Notes under the pieces: generated by a model
Databases searched by the model: none
Told to the model about the DNA's origin: nothing
The model's input: the letters and a program-made list of their open reading frames with translations, nothing else
Part shown: in pieces, positions 11,975-57,535 of the stretch
How the letters are laid out: the number at the start of each line of letters is the position of its first letter
How positions within the stretch are numbered: position 1 is the stretch's first letter
Made by a program: the position numbers and the translations under genes
Assembly (NCBI GenBank): GCA_020059745.1
Contig: JAGVBK010000002.1
Span: 104,301 to 168,300 of the forward strand
Direction: 5' to 3'
Origin: Candidatus Shapirobacteria bacterium
GTDB taxonomy: Bacteria > Patescibacteriota > Microgenomatia > UM-FILTER-40-11
DNA: 64,000 nt

Positions 11975-12730
11975 ATGGAAATAATTCTTTTTGATTCATC
12001 CTGGGAAAAGGAAAAAATAATACCGGTTGATATTCCGGTTCCTAAACCTGTGGAACCAAAAATTTCTTCTTCTTTCCCTTTCGCAAAATTTGCCAGAGGC
12101 CTTGCTTTGGGCTTAATCGGCATTTCTCTTTTTGTTTTTGGCGCAGCAGTTTTGCCAATAATCAAGCTGGAATTAAGCTACCGCCTTAATCCTAAAAATG
12201 AAGCTGAAGCAAGAGAATACTTTCCCAAAACTCCAAGTTATGAGGTTGCCTTAGAAAACAAAAAGCAGCTTGCCTCACAAGAAGCAGCCAAATACGGGGT
12301 TGATACAGATTTTTCTCTGGTCATCCCTAAAATTTCTGCTACCTCAAAAATCATTGCCAATGTGGACCCGGCAGACGAAAATAAATACAAAGCTGCTCTT
12401 AAAAATGGAGTTGCCCACGCCAGCGGCACCAAATTCCCTGGCAGCAAAGGCACTATTTATCTTTTTGCCCATTCCACCAACACTTTAGTTAATGTTTCCC
12501 GCTACAATGCTGTCTTTTATCTAGTTAAAGAGCTGGAACCCGGAGACCAGGTTATCATCTTTTTTGCCGGTCTAAAATATTCGTACCGGGTAACCGAAAA
12601 GGTCATCACTACTCCAGAAGATTTATCTTTGATAAAAGACAACCAATCAACTGAAAAGCTAATTCTTCAAACCTGTTGGCCGCCGGGAACAACCTTAAAA
12701 CGGCTCATGGTTGTAGCAGAAAGAATTTAA
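11975..12730 (+). CDS. Sortase-family transpeptidase (copy 1)
   Basis: 251 aa with an N-terminal TM helix. Contains IYLFAHST (catalytic His region) and LILQTCWPPGT (TLxTC-like Cys motif). Confidence 0.8.
   Translation: MEIILFDSSWEKEKIIPVDIPVPKPVEPKISSSFPFAKFARGLALGLIGISLFVFGAAVLPIIKLELSYRLNPKNEAEAREYFPKTPSYEVALENKKQLASQEAAKYGVDTDFSLVIPKISATSKIIANVDPADENKYKAALKNGVAHASGTKFPGSKGTIYLFAHSTNTLVNVSRYNAVFYLVKELEPGDQVIIFFAGLKYSYRVTEKVITTPEDLSLIKDNQSTEKLILQTCWPPGTTLKRLMVVAERI
12281..12392 (+). repeat. Near-identical 112-nt tract shared by the two sortase paralogs (copy 1)
   Basis: Differs at only 2 positions from 13871-13982, while the flanking coding sequence is clearly diverged. Shorter identical blocks lie at 12449-12482 = 14039-14072 and 12653-12687 = 14243-14277. 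Confidence 0.9.
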
Positions 12731-13603: not shown

Positions 13604-14320
13604 ATGGAAATAATTCTTTATGAGGCTAAAGATAAAAAAAGCCTTGTTTTAAAAGAGTTTACAAAACTTTCTTTCATAAACTCCAAAGCCGCAGCCGAAT
13701 ACCTGGGCTACAGCTTTCTTGCCGCCTCCTTAATGTTTCTATTGGTCGGCTTTGCCCCGATTATTAAAGAAGAAGCAAAATATCAACTAAAAAGACTTTT
13801 TACTTTCTCTGCTCCGGAGGCAAGCGTTGAAAGTGTTTTTTTTGAAAACTCAAAAAAAATTGTTGAAGAGGAAGCAGCCAAATACGGGGTTGATACAGAT
13901 TTTTCTCTGGTCATCCCCAAAATTTCTGCAACCTCAAAAATCATTGCCAATGTGGACCCGGCAGACGAAAATAAATACAAAGAACTTCTAAAAACCGGAG
14001 TGGCACACGCGACAGGCACAAAGTTTCCCGGAAACAATGGCACTATTTATCTTTTTGCCCATTCCACCAACAACCCGGAAAACATTGTCCGCTACAATGC
14101 GGTTTTTTACCTTTTAAAAGAACTTGAGCCTGAAGATGAAGTCATTGTTTTTTTTGCCGGCCAAAAATTTGTCTATAAAGTTACCAAAAACTTTATTGCC
14201 GAAGCCGGTGACCTAAAATGGCTCTCGGGAGATGAGAATGAAGAAAAGCTAATTCTTCAAACCTGTTGGCCGCCGGGGACAACTTTCAAACGGCTCATTG
14301 TTGAAGCTAAACCTTTATAA
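13604..14320 (+). CDS. Sortase-family transpeptidase (copy 2)
   Basis: 238 aa with the same IYLFAHST and LILQTCWPPGT motifs as copy 1. Confidence 0.8.
   Translation: MEIILYEAKDKKSLVLKEFTKLSFINSKAAAEYLGYSFLAASLMFLLVGFAPIIKEEAKYQLKRLFTFSAPEASVESVFFENSKKIVEEEAAKYGVDTDFSLVIPKISATSKIIANVDPADENKYKELLKTGVAHATGTKFPGNNGTIYLFAHSTNNPENIVRYNAVFYLLKELEPEDEVIVFFAGQKFVYKVTKNFIAEAGDLKWLSGDENEEKLILQTCWPPGTTFKRLIVEAKPL
13871..13982 (+). repeat. Near-identical 112-nt tract shared by the two sortase paralogs (copy 2)
   Basis: Partner of 12281-12392, with 2 mismatches by direct comparison. Confidence 0.9.
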
Positions 14321-14359: not shown

Positions 14360-16528
14360 TTGATGGACAGAAACCAAATGACTGGAGAAGAATTACCTTT
14401 CTCATTGATTGAGATCCGTTTACCTAAATCAAGCGAAAAAACCCCGGAAGCGGCGGCTCAGCTTTTTGCGGCCTTTTCCTCCCTTCCTAAAAAGTCTTTT
14501 TTGTCTTTTAAACCTCCAGTAAGCATTTGTTTTGAAATTGTTTGTGTTGACCAGGTCGTCCATTTTCTCATTTCCTGCCCTAAGGAAATGAAAGGTTATG
14601 TTGAAAGCCAGCTTTCTGCCCAATATCCGGAAAGCATCCTTCTGGAAATTCCCAAAGATTATCTTGCCGGCTACACCCAAAACTCAAACCCAAACCTGGG
14701 CCAGCTTACTTTATCAAACAGCTTTTATCTGCCTTTGCGAACCTATAAGGAAGTTAAAGACTCTGATCTTATTTCTTCTGTTTTGGGCGCTATGTCCAAA
14801 GCCGGGCCGGAAGATTTTATGGCTATCCAATTTATTATCGCCCAAGCCGGTAACTGGCAAGGCTATGCCCAGGGAATCATTGACAGAGGAATCCCCTCAG
14901 GAGAGGAAGGAAAAACTCTTCCCCACCCCCAGGCAAAACACATTGCTGAAAAAATAAGCAGCGGTGGCTTTTGGACCGCCATAAGAATCATTGCCAGTTC
15001 AGAAGAACTTCTAAGAAATATTTCCAATTCCTTTTCTTCCTACCAAAGCGATGTCAATGGCTTAAAACTTAAAAAAATAAGCCCGAGAAACAAAAAAAAG
15101 CTGCTTGAATCTTGTCTCAAAAGGTCTTTCGAAATGGCTCCTGCTAACCAGGTTCTTAACCTTGACGAGCTCGCTTCTCTTTGGCACCCTCCATCAAAGC
15201 ATTTGTCGGGCATTAAAAACATCATGTGGACACAAACCATTATGAGTGAGCCTCCCCTAAACCTGCCTACAGCAATCGACCTTAATGAAGCTGACAAAAA
15301 AGAAATCAATTTCATAGCCCGGACTGAGCATAAAAACAAGGTGGCAACCTTTGGCATTAAGAAAAAAGACCGTAGAAGGCATGTTTACATTATCGGGAAA
15401 AGCGGTACCGGAAAATCAACTTTAATTGCCAATATGGCCATAAACGACTTAAGGAACCGGGAAGGTCTGGCAGTTATTGATCCTCACGGCGATTTAACTG
15501 AAATTCTTTTGGATTATATTCCCTCTTTTAGGATAAACGAAACTTGCTATCTTGACCCGAGCGACACCGCCAACCCTTTTCATCTTAATCCCCTTGAGGT
15601 TAAAAACCCGGCCCATAGAGAACTTGTGGCCTCGAATATTGTCGCCATTTTTTATAAGCTCTACCACTATTCCTGGGGGCCAAGGCTTGAATACATTTTA
15701 AGAAATACAATCCTGACTTTACTGCAAACCCCGCAGCCAACACTTCTTCAGATTACGGAAATGCTTTCCAATAAAAACTTCAGGAAAAGAGTGGTTGATA
15801 ACCTCAATGACCCGGTCTTAAAAAGCTTCTGGGTTAATGAGTTTGAAAAAATGTCTGAAAAAATGATGAATGAAGCGGTTTCTCCGATTTTAAATAAAGT
15901 CGGCCAGTTTACTTCCTCTCCCACCATCAGACAAATTGTCGGCTCTTATCACTCAACAGTTGACCTTGAGGGTATCATGAATTCCGGCAAAGTTTTGCTT
16001 GTTAACCTTTCCCAAGGAAAAATTGGAGAAGACAATGCTGCGCTTTTAGGTGCCATGATTATTACCCAGCTTCAACTGGCGGCCATGAACAGGATTAATG
16101 TTGCTGAAGAACAAAGGAGAGATTTTTATCTTTATGTTGACGAGTTTCAAAACTTTGCCACCAGTGCCTTTGTTAAAATACTTTCTGAGGCAAGAAAATA
16201 CCGCTTAGACCTTTGTCTGGCAAATCAGTATGTCGGCCAGCTTGAAGAAGACCTGCAAAAAGCAATTTTCGGGAATGCGGGAACTTTAATTTCTTTTGTT
16301 GTCGGTGCCGGAGATGCAGGCTACATGGCCCAGGAATTCGGCCAGATTTATAAAGAAGAAGATTTAGTTAATCTGGGCATGTATCAGGTGGCAATGAAGC
16401 TTTGCATCGACAACTTAACATCTTCTCCGTTTTTGGCTACCACCATGCCTCTTCCAAGATGCAAAAACCAAAACAGGTCAAAAGTGCTTAAGGTCTCCAA
16501 GGAAAGACACACGGTCAAGCAAAAATAA
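14360..16528 (+). CDS. VirD4/TraD/TraG-like P-loop NTPase (type IV secretion coupling-protein family) with orphan N-terminal domain
   Basis: 722 aa. Walker A is IIGKSGTGKST, followed by VIDPHGD. Walker B-like is FYLYVDEFQNF, with a KYRLDLCLANQY region. The N-terminal ~330 aa have no obvious TM helices and no motif I recognise. Confidence 0.65.
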   Translation: MMDRNQMTGEELPFSLIEIRLPKSSEKTPEAAAQLFAAFSSLPKKSFLSFKPPVSICFEIVCVDQVVHFLISCPKEMKGYVESQLSAQYPESILLEIPKDYLAGYTQNSNPNLGQLTLSNSFYLPLRTYKEVKDSDLISSVLGAMSKAGPEDFMAIQFIIAQAGNWQGYAQGIIDRGIPSGEEGKTLPHPQAKHIAEKISSGGFWTAIRIIASSEELLRNISNSFSSYQSDVNGLKLKKISPRNKKKLLESCLKRSFEMAPANQVLNLDELASLWHPPSKHLSGIKNIMWTQTIMSEPPLNLPTAIDLNEADKKEINFIARTEHKNKVATFGIKKKDRRRHVYIIGKSGTGKSTLIANMAINDLRNREGLAVIDPHGDLTEILLDYIPSFRINETCYLDPSDTANPFHLNPLEVKNPAHRELVASNIVAIFYKLYHYSWGPRLEYILRNTILTLLQTPQPTLLQITEMLSNKNFRKRVVDNLNDPVLKSFWVNEFEKMSEKMMNEAVSPILNKVGQFTSSPTIRQIVGSYHSTVDLEGIMNSGKVLLVNLSQGKIGEDNAALLGAMIITQLQLAAMNRINVAEEQRRDFYLYVDEFQNFATSAFVKILSEARKYRLDLCLANQYVGQLEEDLQKAIFGNAGTLISFVVGAGDAGYMAQEFGQIYKEEDLVNLGMYQVAMKLCIDNLTSSPFLATTMPLPRCKNQNRSKVLKVSKERHTVKQK

Positions 16529-16531
16529 AAA

Positions 16532-16888
16532 CTAGGTTCTTCTTCTGGAAAAATTCAGAAACCGGCAACCATATCTTTTCCTGTGTTCCAAACCCTCCTT
16601 AACCTTACCGCTCATATGGGTGCAGGGCGCGCCCTTACCGGAAGTAATTACTTCAAACAACCTAGCTTTATCTTCTCCTGACAAAAACTCACTTTGCCTT
16701 AGCCTTTCAATTTCCGAAAGCGCTTCAGAAGATAAAGATATGTGGCTGCCAAATTGCTTTTCAATCCTTAAAAGTATTCCACCAAGCATGCCATTACCTC
16801 CCTCCTCAAAATAGCTTTTAACAAATTTTCCAAGCGGTCTAGCGGCAAGATCGCCAGATATTCTCTCAGGTCTCATAGTAATTTTCAT
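16532..16888 (-). CDS. Hypothetical protein
   Basis: 118-aa ORF with no recognised motif and no SD. A TATAAT overlaps the first ATG, so the true start may be Met5 (16876) on a short-leader mRNA. Confidence 0.4.
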   Translation of the reverse strand: MKITMRPERISGDLAARPLGKFVKSYFEEGGNGMLGGILLRIEKQFGSHISLSSEALSEIERLRQSEFLSGEDKARLFEVITSGKGAPCTHMSGKVKEGLEHRKRYGCRFLNFSRRRT

Positions 16889-16926
16889 TATAGCAGTTTA
16901 GCTGAGATTTTTTCCAACAAAAAATC

Positions 16927-16952
16927 CGCCTATTCGGCGGACTTCTTGAAAA
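16927..16952 (-). terminator. Intrinsic terminator of ncRNA candidate 2
   Basis: The minus strand reads UCCGCC-GAAUA-GGCGGA followed by UUUUUGUU. Confidence 0.7.
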
Positions 16953-17232
16953 CAATCGAGAGCCAGAGAGAGAATTTGGATTTGCGGGAAACGCTGGCTT
17001 AGCCAACGAATCTCATCCTCTTTCCTCTCTGGCTCTCACCTCCCCAAAGGGAGAAGATAAAGACATCGGACAAAACCTTCTTCTCATTCTCTCCTCTCCA
17101 GCAGCCATTGATGGAAAAGAAAGGTTTCCTGTGCCCCAGCTCACAGTTAGAGATTGGGTTTCTCCTAGTCTTTTTTTTAAAGGACTCCGCACAAAAAAAC
17201 ACTTTCTGCTTTCTTAGGAAGTGTTTGTGAGG
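16927..17232 (-). ncRNA. Structured ncRNA candidate 2 (unclassified)
   Basis: It is bracketed by a TTGACA-17-TATTAT promoter and an intrinsic terminator. It contains a 13-bp perfect helix (16968-16980 with 17025-17037) and further hairpins. There is no ORF with an SD. Confidence 0.5.
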
Positions 17233-17238
17233 AAGATA

Positions 17239-17267
17239 ATAATAACAAATGCTATTTTTCTTGTCAA
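17239..17267 (-). promoter_or_regulatory. Sigma-70-type promoter for ncRNA candidate 2
   Basis: The minus strand has TTGACA (17267-17262), a 17-nt spacer and TATTAT (17244-17239). Confidence 0.6.
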
Positions 17268-17272
17268 GCCCA

Positions 17273-17300
17273 ACAAAAAACCCGCCTATTCGGCGAGTTC
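17273..17300 (-). terminator. Intrinsic terminator of ncRNA candidate 1
   Basis: The minus strand reads CUCGCC-GAAUA-GGCGGG followed by UUUUUUGUU. The loop and 3' arm are almost identical to the terminator at 16927-16952. Confidence 0.7.
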
Positions 17301-17645
17301 TTTGAGAAAACAAGGGAAAACGGATGGGGTCGGGGGAAGGCAACAATACATCAAGTGGTTTTAAAAACCCACAAAATGTATCTTTACCTTCCCGGGTTCC
17401 CCTTACCCTCCCGTTTGACGGGACCGACAGTTGCTTCTCTTTGGTTTGGTAAAAATACACCTTGCCTGGAGAAGCTGGCCCGCTTTAAGCGGAGCCAAAG
17501 GAAGTAGTCCGAGGATATCTGCGAATAAAAGGCAAAATCCCTCCTTTCCTTCAATCACTGCAGTGGCGGATACAACGCCGGGTCGGGGTAACCAAGCTTT
17601 TGTCTTTTGGGTCAGCTTGGTTTTTTAATCCGTTTTCCCTTTTAA
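17273..17645 (-). ncRNA. Structured ncRNA candidate 1 (unclassified)
   Basis: A 14-bp perfect closing helix (17312-17325 AAGGGAAAACGGAT with 17628-17641 ATCCGTTTTCCCTT) encloses about 300 nt that is visibly GC-richer and has several internal hairpins. A terminator follows immediately on the minus strand. The 5' end and promoter are uncertain. Confidence 0.5.
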
Positions 17646-17744
17646 AAGAACAAAACATTCTTACCTTTGCTTATAAAGATAAGAAAAATGACACTAAATA
17701 AATGCTATATAATTTTTTATTTTCTGTCAATATACACCTTGTGC

Positions 17745-18068
17745 CTAAACCTTTGTCCAGCCGGTTTTTTCAAGCTGGCTTATAAGCTGGGGACAATCGC
17801 CTTCTGTAGTAAGCTGCATCACGAAAGCTCCGGTGTCGGTAACCACCTCGCAGATTTCACCTACTTTTCTGCCCTCTTTATAAAGACAAAGACCGCCTTT
17901 TCTTTCCGTAATCTGCTCAGTGCCATGCCCATTTTGCCGAGAAAATCTGACTTCATGATACTCGTTTCCCTTATCGTTCCAAAAGTTTCCATTGCAGTTT
18001 TCGCTAAAGATACAGTGGTTTATAATCCAAACTGAAGGTTGAAAGTGTCCATTTTCAGGACTTAGCAT
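17745..18068 (-). CDS. Hypothetical small Cys-containing protein
   Basis: 107-aa ORF with no recognised motif and no clear SD. Confidence 0.35.
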   Translation of the reverse strand: MLSPENGHFQPSVWIINHCIFSENCNGNFWNDKGNEYHEVRFSRQNGHGTEQITERKGGLCLYKEGRKVGEICEVVTDTGAFVMQLTTEGDCPQLISQLEKTGWTKV

Positions 18069-18201
18069 AATTAATTTTGATATTTTTCAACAAAAATTTC
18101 AATTATCAAATTAAGCCATAAAAATTGACATTATAGGATATTTATGATAAATTTCTGCCCATCCGTTCATTACGGTATGCACATTCACAACAGGAGGTAC
18201 A

Positions 18202-18729
18202 ATGTACATCCGGGAGTTGCCCGCAGTTGGAGAGCTAGCAAAAGTGCAGGCTCAAATCGTCCGGTATGTTCTGCTCACGATTTTTTTCGGATCTCTCCTT
18301 TTTCTCTCTGCCGCTCTTTTCGGCTCCGACATTGTTTGGAGCTGGGATGGCTTTGATCCCTTCTTGGGAGAAAGAGCCATCGAGGGCCTGGCAATCTCAT
18401 TTCTTACCTCTGGGCTGGAAATGCTCAGGGGCATATTGGTTGCAGGAGAAGTAGTAAAAAGGAAATCGCCCGAGTACTACCTTTTGTGCATCCTTGAAGC
18501 AGTTGCCTATGTAGTTGATATCATTACCAACTACTTGGGCATATCTGTACGGCGAGGAGAGTCGGCCTGGGGCTGGACGAGCGACAATGCTGTCGCCACT
18601 ATAGTCAAGGCAGGACTGGCCATCGTCGTCAGCTTCATGGAAATGTTTGTGTTCTGGTTTGCTGAGGCAACGGCTGTTTGCTCGAAATCTCTACAGGCTG
18701 CTGTAGAAACAAAAAAGCAACTGTCCTAG
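18202..18729 (+). CDS. Hypothetical integral membrane protein
   Basis: 175 aa. AGGAGG lies 4 nt upstream of the ATG. There are about 4 hydrophobic helices. It is followed by a long GC-rich hairpin around 18735-18775. Confidence 0.55.
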   Translation: MYIRELPAVGELAKVQAQIVRYVLLTIFFGSLLFLSAALFGSDIVWSWDGFDPFLGERAIEGLAISFLTSGLEMLRGILVAGEVVKRKSPEYYLLCILEAVAYVVDIITNYLGISVRRGESAWGWTSDNAVATIVKAGLAIVVSFMEMFVFWFAEATAVCSKSLQAAVETKKQLS

Positions 18730-18787
18730 CCTCATACCTAAGAGAGGGGGTCTCTTGTTTTTTTTGAGGGACCCTCTCTCGCCTTGC

Positions 18788-19348
18788 TTAAATAGAAGTA
18801 ATCTCTTCTTCTTTTCTCTTGCTTAATTCCTCTACTCTTCCTGTATATTCATCGGTTATTTTTTGCAAATCGTCCTCTGCTTTAAATTTCTCGTCTTCCG
18901 AAATTTCCTTTTCTTCAAAAGCCGTTTTTATTTCTCTTATCTTGTCCTGTCTTATGTTTCTAATCGCAATTCTTGCATTTTCTGTTTTCTGACTTAAAAG
19001 TTTGACGTATTCCTGTCTTCGTTCCGAAGTTAAAGGCGGCACTGAAATTCTTATGATGTTGTTATCAATTACCGGAGTCAATCCGACATTGGCAGCCAGA
19101 ATTCCCTGCCTTATCTCTCCAATCACTGAAGCATCCCAAGGCTGGATAAGAAGTGTTTGCGGGTCTGAAGCAGTAATCATACCCAAAGCCTGAACAGTCA
19201 TTTTTTGGGTTCCGCCGTAAGCGTTTACGGAGATATTTTCAACCAAAGCCGGCACGGCCCTGCCTGTTCTTATGGCAGAAATTTCCGTTTTAAAGTGGTC
19301 AACGGTTTTCTGCATATCAGCTTTAGTGTCTGAAAAATCAACCGCCAT
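18788..19348 (-). CDS. frr: Ribosome recycling factor
   Basis: RRF-like sequence (ISAIRTGRA...LLIQPWD...PPLTSERRQEYVK...IRNIRQD). The first ATG at 19348 gives 186 aa; the longer ORF starts at a TTG. Confidence 0.9.
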   Translation of the reverse strand: MAVDFSDTKADMQKTVDHFKTEISAIRTGRAVPALVENISVNAYGGTQKMTVQALGMITASDPQTLLIQPWDASVIGEIRQGILAANVGLTPVIDNNIIRISVPPLTSERRQEYVKLLSQKTENARIAIRNIRQDKIREIKTAFEEKEISEDEKFKAEDDLQKITDEYTGRVEELSKRKEEEITSI

Positions 19349-19395
19349 AGATAGTTGAAGCGTATCACAAAAGAAGGTTTGCTTCAAGGAATTTA

Positions 19396-19854
19396 TTAGG
19401 CACCAACTTCAAACCTGGCAATTTTGCCGATTTGGATATTTTCCCTGATTTTGCCAATTGCCTCGTTAACAAGGTCTTTAACTTTTTTTGAAGGATCTCT
19501 AATATAATCCTGTTCCAAAAGCTCTTCCTTGTCCTTGGGGCTCATAGCTGCCACCTGCATAGCAAGCTCATGGGCTAAGCTTTTAAATTCATCGTTTCTG
19601 GCCACAAAATCAGTTTCCGAAAGAAGTTCAACCACGCCCACCACTTTTCCCCCGGCATGAGAGTAAACTTCAATAATTCCGGCTTTTGTTTCCCTTTCTT
19701 TTTTTTCTTCGGCAATCTCCAAGCCCTTTTGTTTTATTGCCTCGTAGGCCTTTTCTTCATCGCCTTCAAATTCTTCCAAAGCACGACGGCATTCCATTAT
19801 CCCTGCTCCGCATTTTTCTCTTAATTTTTTAATCTGTTCTGCGGTTACTTTCAT
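19396..19854 (-). CDS. tsf: Elongation factor Ts (short form)
   Basis: It has an N-terminal UBA-like KVTAEQIKKLREKCGAGIMECRRAL motif. It is only 152 aa, so it lacks much of the usual C-terminal module. Confidence 0.8.
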   Translation of the reverse strand: MKVTAEQIKKLREKCGAGIMECRRALEEFEGDEEKAYEAIKQKGLEIAEEKKERETKAGIIEVYSHAGGKVVGVVELLSETDFVARNDEFKSLAHELAMQVAAMSPKDKEELLEQDYIRDPSKKVKDLVNEAIGKIRENIQIGKIARFEVGA

Positions 19855-56755: not shown

Positions 56756-57535
56756 TTATTCACTTTCCCCTACCGGAGCAATTGACCAGTCTTTAATCAG
56801 CCTGGTTTCTTCTACCTGGTTTAAGGAAGAATCCCAAGTTCCGCTTACCCTGACACGGTGGCCCTCTTTAAGCTCGGAAAAGGGAATCTCCTTGTGAGCC
56901 CTATTAACAATTTTAGTGCTCTCTTTAACAAGTACGGCTTGATCCTCTCTTTTTGCCGTCTCAATAACCAGCTTGCCCTCGCTTAGGCTTTTTATCTTGC
57001 CCCAAAAAGTGGCAAACCTCTTTTGTAAGGAAAGATCTCTCAAAATCCTTAATTCAAGTACCGCGTTGTCGCTGTCCTGCCAGGTTCCCCGGGCAGAAAC
57101 AAGATGGCCGACTTTAAGATCAGAAACCAAAGCCTTTCCTCCATATTTTTTAAGAATGACTGTTTTCTCAGTTACCAAAAGCTTAACTTCTTTACTTTCA
57201 TGGGTAACAGTAATTTCGTTTCCGGAAATTACTTTTATTTCTGCTTGGTTAAGTCCGGCCGGAAGAAGCTTTGGGTAAAGTTTTCTTATTCTTTCAAGAA
57301 TTCTTGAACGGATGTTTTGACCTGCCTGGCCTGAAGGCGTTGCCAATCTTTTTTCTTCCGTTATCTCGTTTCTTGCTTCTTCTTTTATCCCTTTAATGCT
57401 TTCCCTTACCTCCTCCTTAATTTCTTTTCTTATTGCATTTTGCATTTGGGGAGCATTGCCCTGGCCAAAAACCTGGGTATTAAAAAGAAAAAGAAAGATG
57501 ACAAAAAAAACAGCAGTTTTCTTCAATGGTCTCAC
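56756..57535 (-). CDS. Secreted protein with two DUF5666-like repeats
   Basis: It has a signal peptide and the repeated pattern S.LK.GH.V...GTW. Confidence 0.45.
   Translation of the reverse strand: MRPLKKTAVFFVIFLFLFNTQVFGQGNAPQMQNAIRKEIKEEVRESIKGIKEEARNEITEEKRLATPSGQAGQNIRSRILERIRKLYPKLLPAGLNQAEIKVISGNEITVTHESKEVKLLVTEKTVILKKYGGKALVSDLKVGHLVSARGTWQDSDNAVLELRILRDLSLQKRFATFWGKIKSLSEGKLVIETAKREDQAVLVKESTKIVNRAHKEIPFSELKEGHRVRVSGTWDSSLNQVEETRLIKDWSIAPVGESE

Follow-up and report, generated by a model that had tools for sequence, protein, structure and literature searches.

Do the small genes packed between an ATPase gene and frr in Candidatus Shapirobacteria bacterium form one functional unit, or do they merely share a place in the genome? 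We addressed this question in a stretch of 64,000 nucleotides (nt) of contig JAGVBK010000002.1 (assembly GCA_020059745.1, positions 104,301 to 168,300 of the forward strand), hereafter the window; related loci are numbered L001 to L044, and coordinates given without a locus number follow the numbering of the 64-kb stretch. A first-pass annotation had set apart about 2.2 kb (16532-18780) as an accessory patch with no recognisable functions, in which two RNA candidates could act together with the neighbouring proteins. The parts that it listed are all present in the interval between the ATPase gene and frr: open reading frames (ORFs) of 118 amino acids (aa; o118), 107 aa (Cys-containing; o107) and 175 aa (m175, a membrane protein), and the two RNA candidates, RNA1 and RNA2. 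None of the three proteins has a significant family match and the content of the interval varies among relatives, in keeping with an accessory region full of unknowns. We favor, with moderate confidence, the view that the patch is not one functional module but a variable region, lineage-specific and layered, with two stand-alone genes for structured non-coding RNAs (ncRNAs).

Two probable structured RNA genes between o107 and o118

The 856-nt gap between the 118-aa and the 107-aa ORFs, in which no conserved ORF was found, consists of two successive minus-strand units, each with a promoter, an RNA of about 320-430 nt and a terminator. RNA2 (about 425 nt, from about 17695 to 17271) is preceded by the promoter TTGACA-17-TAGCAT (17730-17702), which begins 15 nt past the stop codon of o107 with no terminator between them, and which is kept in L035, L036 and L044. 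The core of RNA2 (17312-17641) has 13 consensus helices and is closed by a helix of 12-14 bp that pairs 17641-17628 with 17325-17312; variable peripheral hairpins and an intrinsic terminator (about 17303-17271) complete the unit. RNA1 (about 320 nt, from about 17232 to 16915) follows the promoter TTGACA-17-TGnTATTAT (17267-17239), which has 11 of 12 consensus matches and is kept in L033, and is built from a 5' hairpin, a central domain with multiple branches, a hairpin of 81 nt and an intrinsic terminator (16947-16914). The RNA promoters match the consensus at 10-11 of 12 positions, the terminators are made of a 13-bp stem and a T6 run, and both kinds of signal are kept across L033, L035, L036 and L044.

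Both regions fold more stably than expected, with single-sequence z-scores of -8.3 for RNA2 and -5.9 for RNA1. At the level of the alignments the signal is stronger on the minus strand (z-score of -9.6 for each RNA) than on the plus strand (-7.7 for RNA2 and -5.5 for RNA1). RNA2 is 80-83% identical to its counterparts in L036, L044 and L035, and RNA1 is 83% identical to that of L033; in both cases the indels are not multiples of three. Neutral sites in the flanking genes are saturated between the window and L033 or L036 (pS, the proportion of synonymous differences, 0.54-0.67; dS, the synonymous substitution rate, 1.0-1.7).

In the four-sequence alignment of RNA2, 99.8% of the cells are paired and eight pairs have changed on both sides; when, as a control, the 3' partners were slid by one to three columns, the number of double-changed pairs was 0-3. 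The consensus fold of RNA1 shows four compensatory (double) changes and 13 one-sided changes that keep the pair, with none broken. To avoid a fitting bias, we also took structures predicted from the window sequence alone and compared the effect of the observed substitutions with that of the same substitutions placed at random. The substitutions found in the relatives break 17 pairs of RNA2, against 24.2 for random placement, and those of L033 break 5 pairs of RNA1, against an expected 9.5; only 3 and 5 of 2000 simulations, respectively, were as good. In L036 and L044, RNA2 has an extra hairpin, an insertion of 54 nt, and its helices vary in length. Hardly any change is seen in junction strands such as GGGUAAGGGGAACCCGGGAAGGUAAAG, and the peripheral helices differ in length, a pattern of variation that has the look of a functional fold.

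Judged by these features, that is, a conserved promoter and terminator of their own, constraint above the neutral level and compensatory change, RNA1 and RNA2 are probably stand-alone ncRNA genes. Both look like real genes of the minus strand, and we infer that they are transcribed. The k-mers that they have in common are confined to the terminator module (about 45 nt), and the two RNAs bear no relation to each other in sequence or architecture.

Covariance models of the RNA1 central domain and of the RNA2 3' domain matched only the sequences from which they were built when run against 576 kb of related loci and the window. A weak nhmmer match to RNA2 at 56771-56886 lies inside a coding ORF, and we attribute it to chance. 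Scans of viral contigs with internal motifs of RNA1 and RNA2 were empty, as were distant blastn searches of phage and plasmid records. A metagenome scan with the terminator module common to the two RNAs returned generic terminators only (after a tRNA, after rplS, after a membrane-protein gene in L040, and in L038) and added no homologues. The module seems to be a recurrent type of terminator and not specific to RNA1 and RNA2. In L038, an unrelated metagenome contig of 1.5 kb, two copies of a very similar module (TTTTCAAGAAGGTCGCCGAACAGGCGGCTTTTTTGTTGG) are found at 594-648 and 1218-1280, one of them following a tiny hydrophobic ORF.

Gene content at the junction differs among lineages

The patch sits where two conventional gene blocks converge: sortases and a TrwB/VirD4-like ATPase on one side (ATPase gene, 14360-16528, plus strand; Pfam TrwB_AAD_bind, 1.5e-10) and frr-tsf-rpsB on the other (frr, 18788-19387, minus strand in the ORF map), as the first-pass annotation had it. 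Related loci were drawn from a genome scan for the ATPase (27 loci), from contigs with o107 homologues and from contigs with phmmer homologues of o118, and were compared by tblastn, blastn and nhmmer; a percentage in brackets directly after a locus gives the identity of its ATPase to that of the window.

The window and its strain variants (L001-L005 and L037) have o118, RNA1, RNA2, o107 and m175. L033/L034 (93%) have o118 (42% identical), RNA1 only (83%), o107 (67%) and an unrelated membrane ORF of 154 aa, and L036 (96%) and L044 (91%) have o118 (72% and 70%), RNA2 only (80-83%, with the extra 54-nt hairpin) and o107. In L035, frr is followed directly by o107 and RNA2, with no membrane ORF, and the contig ends inside RNA2. 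In L042 (84%), o118 (39%) comes after a third unrelated membrane ORF and 129 nt, and neither RNA is present, nor is o107. L043 (81%) runs from frr through an o118-like ORF (44%) and a 76-aa ORF to the ATPase gene, with no RNA, o107 or membrane ORF, and L006 (75%) has two unrelated small ORFs and none of the patch parts. Over eight lineages, the interval from the ATPase gene to frr has six different contents. Synteny with frr was not found at 25 more distant Gottesmanbacteria loci.

Conserved flanks together with a content that differs among relatives make this junction a variable hot spot, or genomic island, but one in which mobility elements were not found: the ORF list and the tRNA and profile scans gave no integrase, transposase or tRNA gene in the interval 13-22.5 kb. 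Flanking direct repeats were not found either, the sole direct repeat being the 39-nt terminator module, and no tandem repeat family was found in 16400-18900. Parts of the patch are richer in G+C than the backbone, as the first-pass annotation had noted. The m175 gene has a G+C content of 0.50 (0.55 at third codon positions, GC3), the RNA2 core 0.485 and RNA1 0.45, against a window mean of 0.411 (standard deviation 0.045); the m175 gene and the RNA2 core lie at about the 95th percentile among 500-nt windows.

Two side observations concern individual relatives. Among near-identical strains (17131-18228 compared with L003, L005 and L037), 16 differences separate the window from L003, and 13 of them lie within the patch; the four single-nucleotide polymorphisms in o107 all change an amino acid, and the two in m175 are silent. 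In L035, a PCC-domain gene survives as fragments and tsf and frr are separated by an inserted DUF6922 gene (L035 6751-6913, 8397-8711 and 9511-9861), and o107 starts 5 nt after frr, with one nucleotide deleted from an A-run close to its end, which changes the C-terminus.

The RNA2 terminator of L036 (917-952) and of L044 (587-622) combines a 5' arm of the RNA2 type with a 3' arm of the RNA1 type, with a C·A mismatch at the base of the stem. This chimeric structure fits a deletion of RNA1 by recombination between direct repeats of 39-45 nt.

We propose that the region was built in layers at the point where the sortase/VirD4-like ATPase block and the rpsB-tsf-frr operon converge. The older layer would be o118, which lies tail-to-tail with the ATPase gene in six lineages (seven if L043, with its intervening 76-aa ORF, is included) and which reaches further back, to L042 and L043, than do o107 and the RNAs. 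A younger layer, restricted to the closest clade, would comprise o107, then RNA2, then RNA1, on the same strand; both RNAs would be transcribed independently, each from a strong promoter of the sigma-70 type to an intrinsic terminator, to give a stable product of 320-430 nt with several helices. Like the window, the ancestor of the clade probably had RNA1 as well as RNA2, and recombination between the terminator direct repeats plausibly deleted one RNA unit in some lineages. The third layer would be a swappable slot, between a divergent-promoter block and a hairpin, that holds a GC3-rich membrane ORF of about 150-175 aa. Its occupants (m175 in the window, another ORF in L033 and a third in L042, beside o118) may reflect repeated replacement or divergence beyond recognition.

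Several observations weigh against this reading. Few genomes, and short contigs, underlie the proposed order of the layers, and a single family that evolves very fast, and not replacement, could account for the three membrane ORFs. Only two distinct RNA1 sequences and three to four distinct RNA2 sequences are available, all from one narrow clade, so that the covariation statistics are weak and partly confounded by relatedness. Moreover, o107 stands beside an RNA gene in five of five lineages, which keeps a partnership between o107 and the RNAs viable.

o107 and its RNA neighbors

The o107 gene (17745-18068, minus strand) encodes a protein of 107 aa that is predicted to be cytoplasmic and has five Cys residues, three of them conserved (C18, C25 and C92). 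Three homologues were found, and the ratio of nonsynonymous to synonymous substitution rates (dN/dS) against relatives is 0.19-0.25. For o118 the ratio is 0.22-0.29, and for the comparison genes frr, tsf and the ATPase gene it is 0.03-0.07; by this measure o118 and o107 are real genes under purifying selection. Searches of Pfam, NCBIfam, PHROGs, PADLOC and the sequences of the Protein Data Bank (PDB) were empty or gave insignificant matches for o107, o118 and m175 alike. An AlphaFold2 (AF2) model of o107 (predicted local distance difference test score, pLDDT, of 70) shows an antiparallel beta-sheet with a C-terminal helix; we found no significant structural neighbor for it, nor any match to an RNA-binding fold. 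A CYTH/triphosphate tunnel fold was also considered and set aside: a confident structural match to the eight-stranded tunnel together with the ExExK motif was not found.

The main rival to the layered reading is that o107 and the adjacent RNA or RNAs are a functional pair, either a ribonucleoprotein or a protein with its regulator, that entered the clade together, with RNA1 and RNA2 as alternative partners. In all five lineages that have o107, RNA1 or RNA2 follows it directly on the same strand; the RNA2 promoter lies 15 nt past its stop codon with no intervening terminator; and L042, L043 and L006, which do not have o107, have neither RNA. This adjacency is what survives of the earlier suggestion that the RNAs act with the proteins of the patch; for all three proteins together, the suggestion fails on their independent occurrence. 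However, the five lineages are close kin (ATPases 91-96% identical), and shared ancestry explains the adjacency equally well. RNA1 and RNA2 have no common motif outside the terminator, which is awkward for a single binding protein, and the o107 model matches no RNA-binding fold. We regard a functional pair as unlikely, if still the best placed of the alternatives.

A bolder proposal is that RNA2, and perhaps RNA1, founds a new class of large bacterial RNA with a complex fold, specific to a Microgenomates clade and of a kind with OLE, ROOL or GOLLD RNAs, that works either as a ribonucleoprotein with o107 or as a ribozyme, the two RNAs being interchangeable in one slot because each lineage with o107 keeps at least one of them. 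To this we give less credence again, and treat it as speculative.

o118 has a probable promoter of its own

The o118 ORF (16532-16888, minus strand) encodes a small helical protein with a basic C-terminal tail. Its AF2 model is helical and of poor quality (pLDDT 52). An exhaustive phmmer search of 1.84 billion cluster representatives gave a family of four small members (P0007-P0010). One phmmer match (E-value 3e-4), to a polyketide synthase with four acyl carrier protein (ACP) domains, had raised the possibility of an ACP or PP-binding identity. We consider this match spurious: the family profile matches neither the ACPs of the PDB nor PP-binding of Pfam, and the aligned position, instead of the phosphopantetheinylated Ser of the DSL motif, reads NG(D/M)L.

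A promoter-like site, TGGAAA-18-TGcTATAAT with an extended -10 element (16887-16916, minus strand), lies between the RNA1 terminator and the start of o118, and its TGCTATAAT box is kept in L033, L036 and L044. The first ATG of o118 overlaps this conserved extended -10 box and is missing in L044, which points to the ATG at 16876 as the true start. The protein would then probably have 114 aa and be made from a near-leaderless mRNA; the leader from this ATG has about 3-4 nt and no Shine-Dalgarno site, whereas the neighboring m175 gene has AGGAGG.

The position of the RNAs, on the same strand as o118 and directly upstream of it, with the o118 start within about 40 nt of a terminator and the order RNA, terminator, o118 kept in L033, L036 and L044, would also suit long cis-acting leaders (riboswitches or attenuators) that control o118 through their terminators. 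The conserved extended -10 promoter between terminator and start speaks against such control, as does the presence in the window of two unrelated RNAs in tandem, each with its own promoter. The orthologues of o118 have RNA1, RNA2 or neither ahead of them, those of L042 and L043 having just 106-129 nt upstream with nothing resembling RNA1 or RNA2, and no riboswitch or leader of Rfam is matched. Leaders of o118 are, in our judgement, improbable.

Returning to the two RNAs as stand-alone genes, we think that they most likely act in trans, as folded RNAs that bind proteins or a ligand in the manner of 6S, OLE or raiA RNAs, a suggestion that we hold less firmly than the layered reading itself. The long, unpaired and near-invariant junction strands, the variable peripheral helices and the promoter that belongs to o118 make base-pairing small RNAs, like leaders of o118, less likely.

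A slot for membrane-protein genes

The m175 gene (18202-18729, plus strand) encodes a membrane protein of 175 aa and corresponds to the NCBI entry 'hypothetical protein C4578_02270'; its G+C content by codon position is coding-like. The strong Shine-Dalgarno site reported earlier is confirmed (AGGAGG), and the protein described as having four membrane helices has three to four hydrophobic segments. It is 100% identical on five contigs, and among 5.8 billion clusters only m175 itself was found, with no homologue beyond its own strain.

The o107 and m175 genes diverge from a common block of about 45 nt with back-to-back promoters (18110-18154), in which the minus-strand TATAAT of o107 abuts the plus-strand TTGACA-17-TAAATT of the membrane-protein gene. 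The block is kept in L033 and L036, and on the side of the membrane gene the sequence beyond it cannot be aligned. At the other end, between the convergent m175 and frr, lies a G+C-rich hairpin of 16 bp (18742-18780; -26.9 kcal/mol, z-score -3.3). This hairpin, which the first-pass annotation took for the terminator of m175, is real, but no U-tail was found on either strand, so it is not a canonical terminator; and since it is kept in L033 next to a different membrane gene, it is part of the conserved frr flank.

The slot lies in the region 18110-18780 in the window, 3645-4320 in L033 and 1-590 in L042, and its conserved flanks, promoter block and hairpin, are seen in the window and in L033. 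The membrane ORFs beside the patch (175 aa in the window, 154 aa in L033, 153 aa in L042) are mutually unalignable, and BLASTP detected no homology among them, a result that would be compatible with a very remote one. All three have a high GC3 (0.55, 0.57 and 0.57, respectively) for a genome G+C content of about 0.40. Either cassette replacement or extreme divergence may account for the slot.

That the whole patch is one co-functioning accessory module of two RNAs and three proteins, for example of a defense or toxin-antitoxin-like kind, is what tight packing, a common location and parts of unrecognised function would suggest. The synteny comparison largely refutes it: the patch is not present or absent as a unit, and its components occur independently of each other in relatives. 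PADLOC, PHROGs and Pfam gave empty or insignificant results, the RNAs have no tandem repeats, and m175 has no homologue. We consider a single module very unlikely.

The RNAs match no known family

Scanning the whole window with the 4227 models of Rfam 15 gave no match at the gathering threshold to either RNA, and none in the RNA region or its homologues with E-values up to 10 apart from scattered matches to unrelated small RNAs, at 13-19 bits; the L033 and L036 homologues gave the same picture. ARAGORN found no transfer-messenger RNA (tmRNA). RNA1 and RNA2 are thus best described as two candidate structured RNA families that match no known family and have a narrow distribution.

These searches bear on the possibility that RNA1 and RNA2 are divergent forms of RNase P RNA, tmRNA, signal recognition particle (SRP) RNA or 6S RNA that Rfam misses in bacteria of the candidate phyla radiation (CPR). 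A size of 320-430 nt and the end-to-end closing helix of RNA2 do recall RNase P RNA or tmRNA, and none of the four housekeeping RNAs was found elsewhere within the 64-kb window. Yet inspection by eye revealed neither conserved strands of the P4 type nor a T-arm or CCA end; for each of the two RNAs there are close relatives that do not have it at this locus; and searches of 576 kb of Gottesmanbacteria loci gave nothing similar. We give this possibility hardly any weight. The same holds for the idea that the 856-nt gap has no RNA genes and is decaying former coding DNA, or spacer, that folds by chance: gene callers did place ORFs of 43-153 aa in it, but 83% identity in spite of saturated synonymous sites, indels whose lengths are not multiples of three, compensatory changes, a strand-asymmetric folding signal and conserved promoters and terminators all argue against it.

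The public gene calls in question place hypothetical proteins of 43-153 aa over RNA1 and RNA2 in the window (16999-17460 and 17013-17192), in L001 (8812-8943), in L037 (182-643) and in L003 (301-570). These ORFs are not conserved, their frames being broken by indels in L033 and L036, and are probably mis-annotations.

Other features of the window

Three further regions of the window are recorded here. Between 8404 and 11086, three minus-strand ORFs of 381, 198 and 266 aa encode proteins with a lipoprotein-type signal or a transmembrane segment and Pro/Thr-rich linkers; with a G+C content of 0.55-0.60, against 0.41, they form the strongest compositional anomaly of the window, and the gene calls of the Joint Genome Institute (JGI) give them no Pfam match. 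Between 11217 and 14320 a DUF11/CLIPPER surface protein (with an LPxTG-like tail) is paired with a sortase twice in succession; in their 3' parts the two sortase genes are 78% identical in DNA (12281-12717 and 13871-14307). The Tsf homologue (19396-19854) has 152 aa, a short length that is kept in all the relatives examined; EF-Ts usually has about 280 aa.

Comparison with known systems

Taken as a functional patch, the locus is an ordinary variable region of orphan genes, and its novelty lies in the two RNAs. CPR bacteria are uncultivated and have reduced genomes, and the locus offers a clean, small example of accessory turnover in them, with layered insertion, the loss of a unit, probably by recombination, and a cassette-like swap of a membrane ORF. 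A literature search for structured ncRNAs in CPR, Patescibacteria or Microgenomates found no relevant paper.

The order of RNA, terminator and small protein gene on one strand is reminiscent of Type III toxin-antitoxin systems (ToxIN). Unlike these, however, the patch has no tandem RNA repeats of 30-40 nt and no ToxN/AbiQ-like domain, and o118 is found in lineages with neither RNA and is preceded by a promoter of its own. The likeness to strain-variable hot spots is closer: conserved flanks, differing content, the atypical GC3 of m175 and the cassette-like replacement of membrane ORFs. The patch differs from them in having no integrase, transposase, tRNA gene or flanking repeats, and in that o118, o107 and the RNAs appear to be under purifying selection.

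For the RNAs themselves, one point of reference is 6S RNA (ssrS), along with other housekeeping RNAs that sequester proteins. Like 6S RNA, RNA1 and RNA2 are likely to be abundant, have a near-consensus promoter, are folded and may act in trans without base pairing. Whereas 6S RNA folds into one long hairpin of about 180 nt interrupted by a central bubble, RNA1 and RNA2 are branched and two times larger, do not match the 6S models of Rfam and are dispensable in close relatives.

Bacterial structured RNAs of more than 300 nt with many helices are rare, and historically they have proved to be ribozymes or the cores of ribonucleoproteins. The size of RNA1 and RNA2, their conservation and their promoters, in a Microgenomates genome of about 1 Mb (an estimate from related assemblies), make a wider search with covariance models worthwhile. 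OLE, raiA, HEARO, ROOL and GOLLD RNAs are large structured bacterial ncRNAs that comparative genomics brought to light, with functions found only lately, if at all. RNA1 and RNA2 differ in that they match none of these in sequence or structure, have no established conserved protein partner and are far more narrowly distributed, in one small Microgenomates clade, with two to four sequences each. They resemble them in being stand-alone and several hundred nt long, with a promoter and a terminator of their own and a lineage-restricted distribution, and in their multi-helix junctions, in which near-invariant junction strands are joined to peripheral helices that vary.

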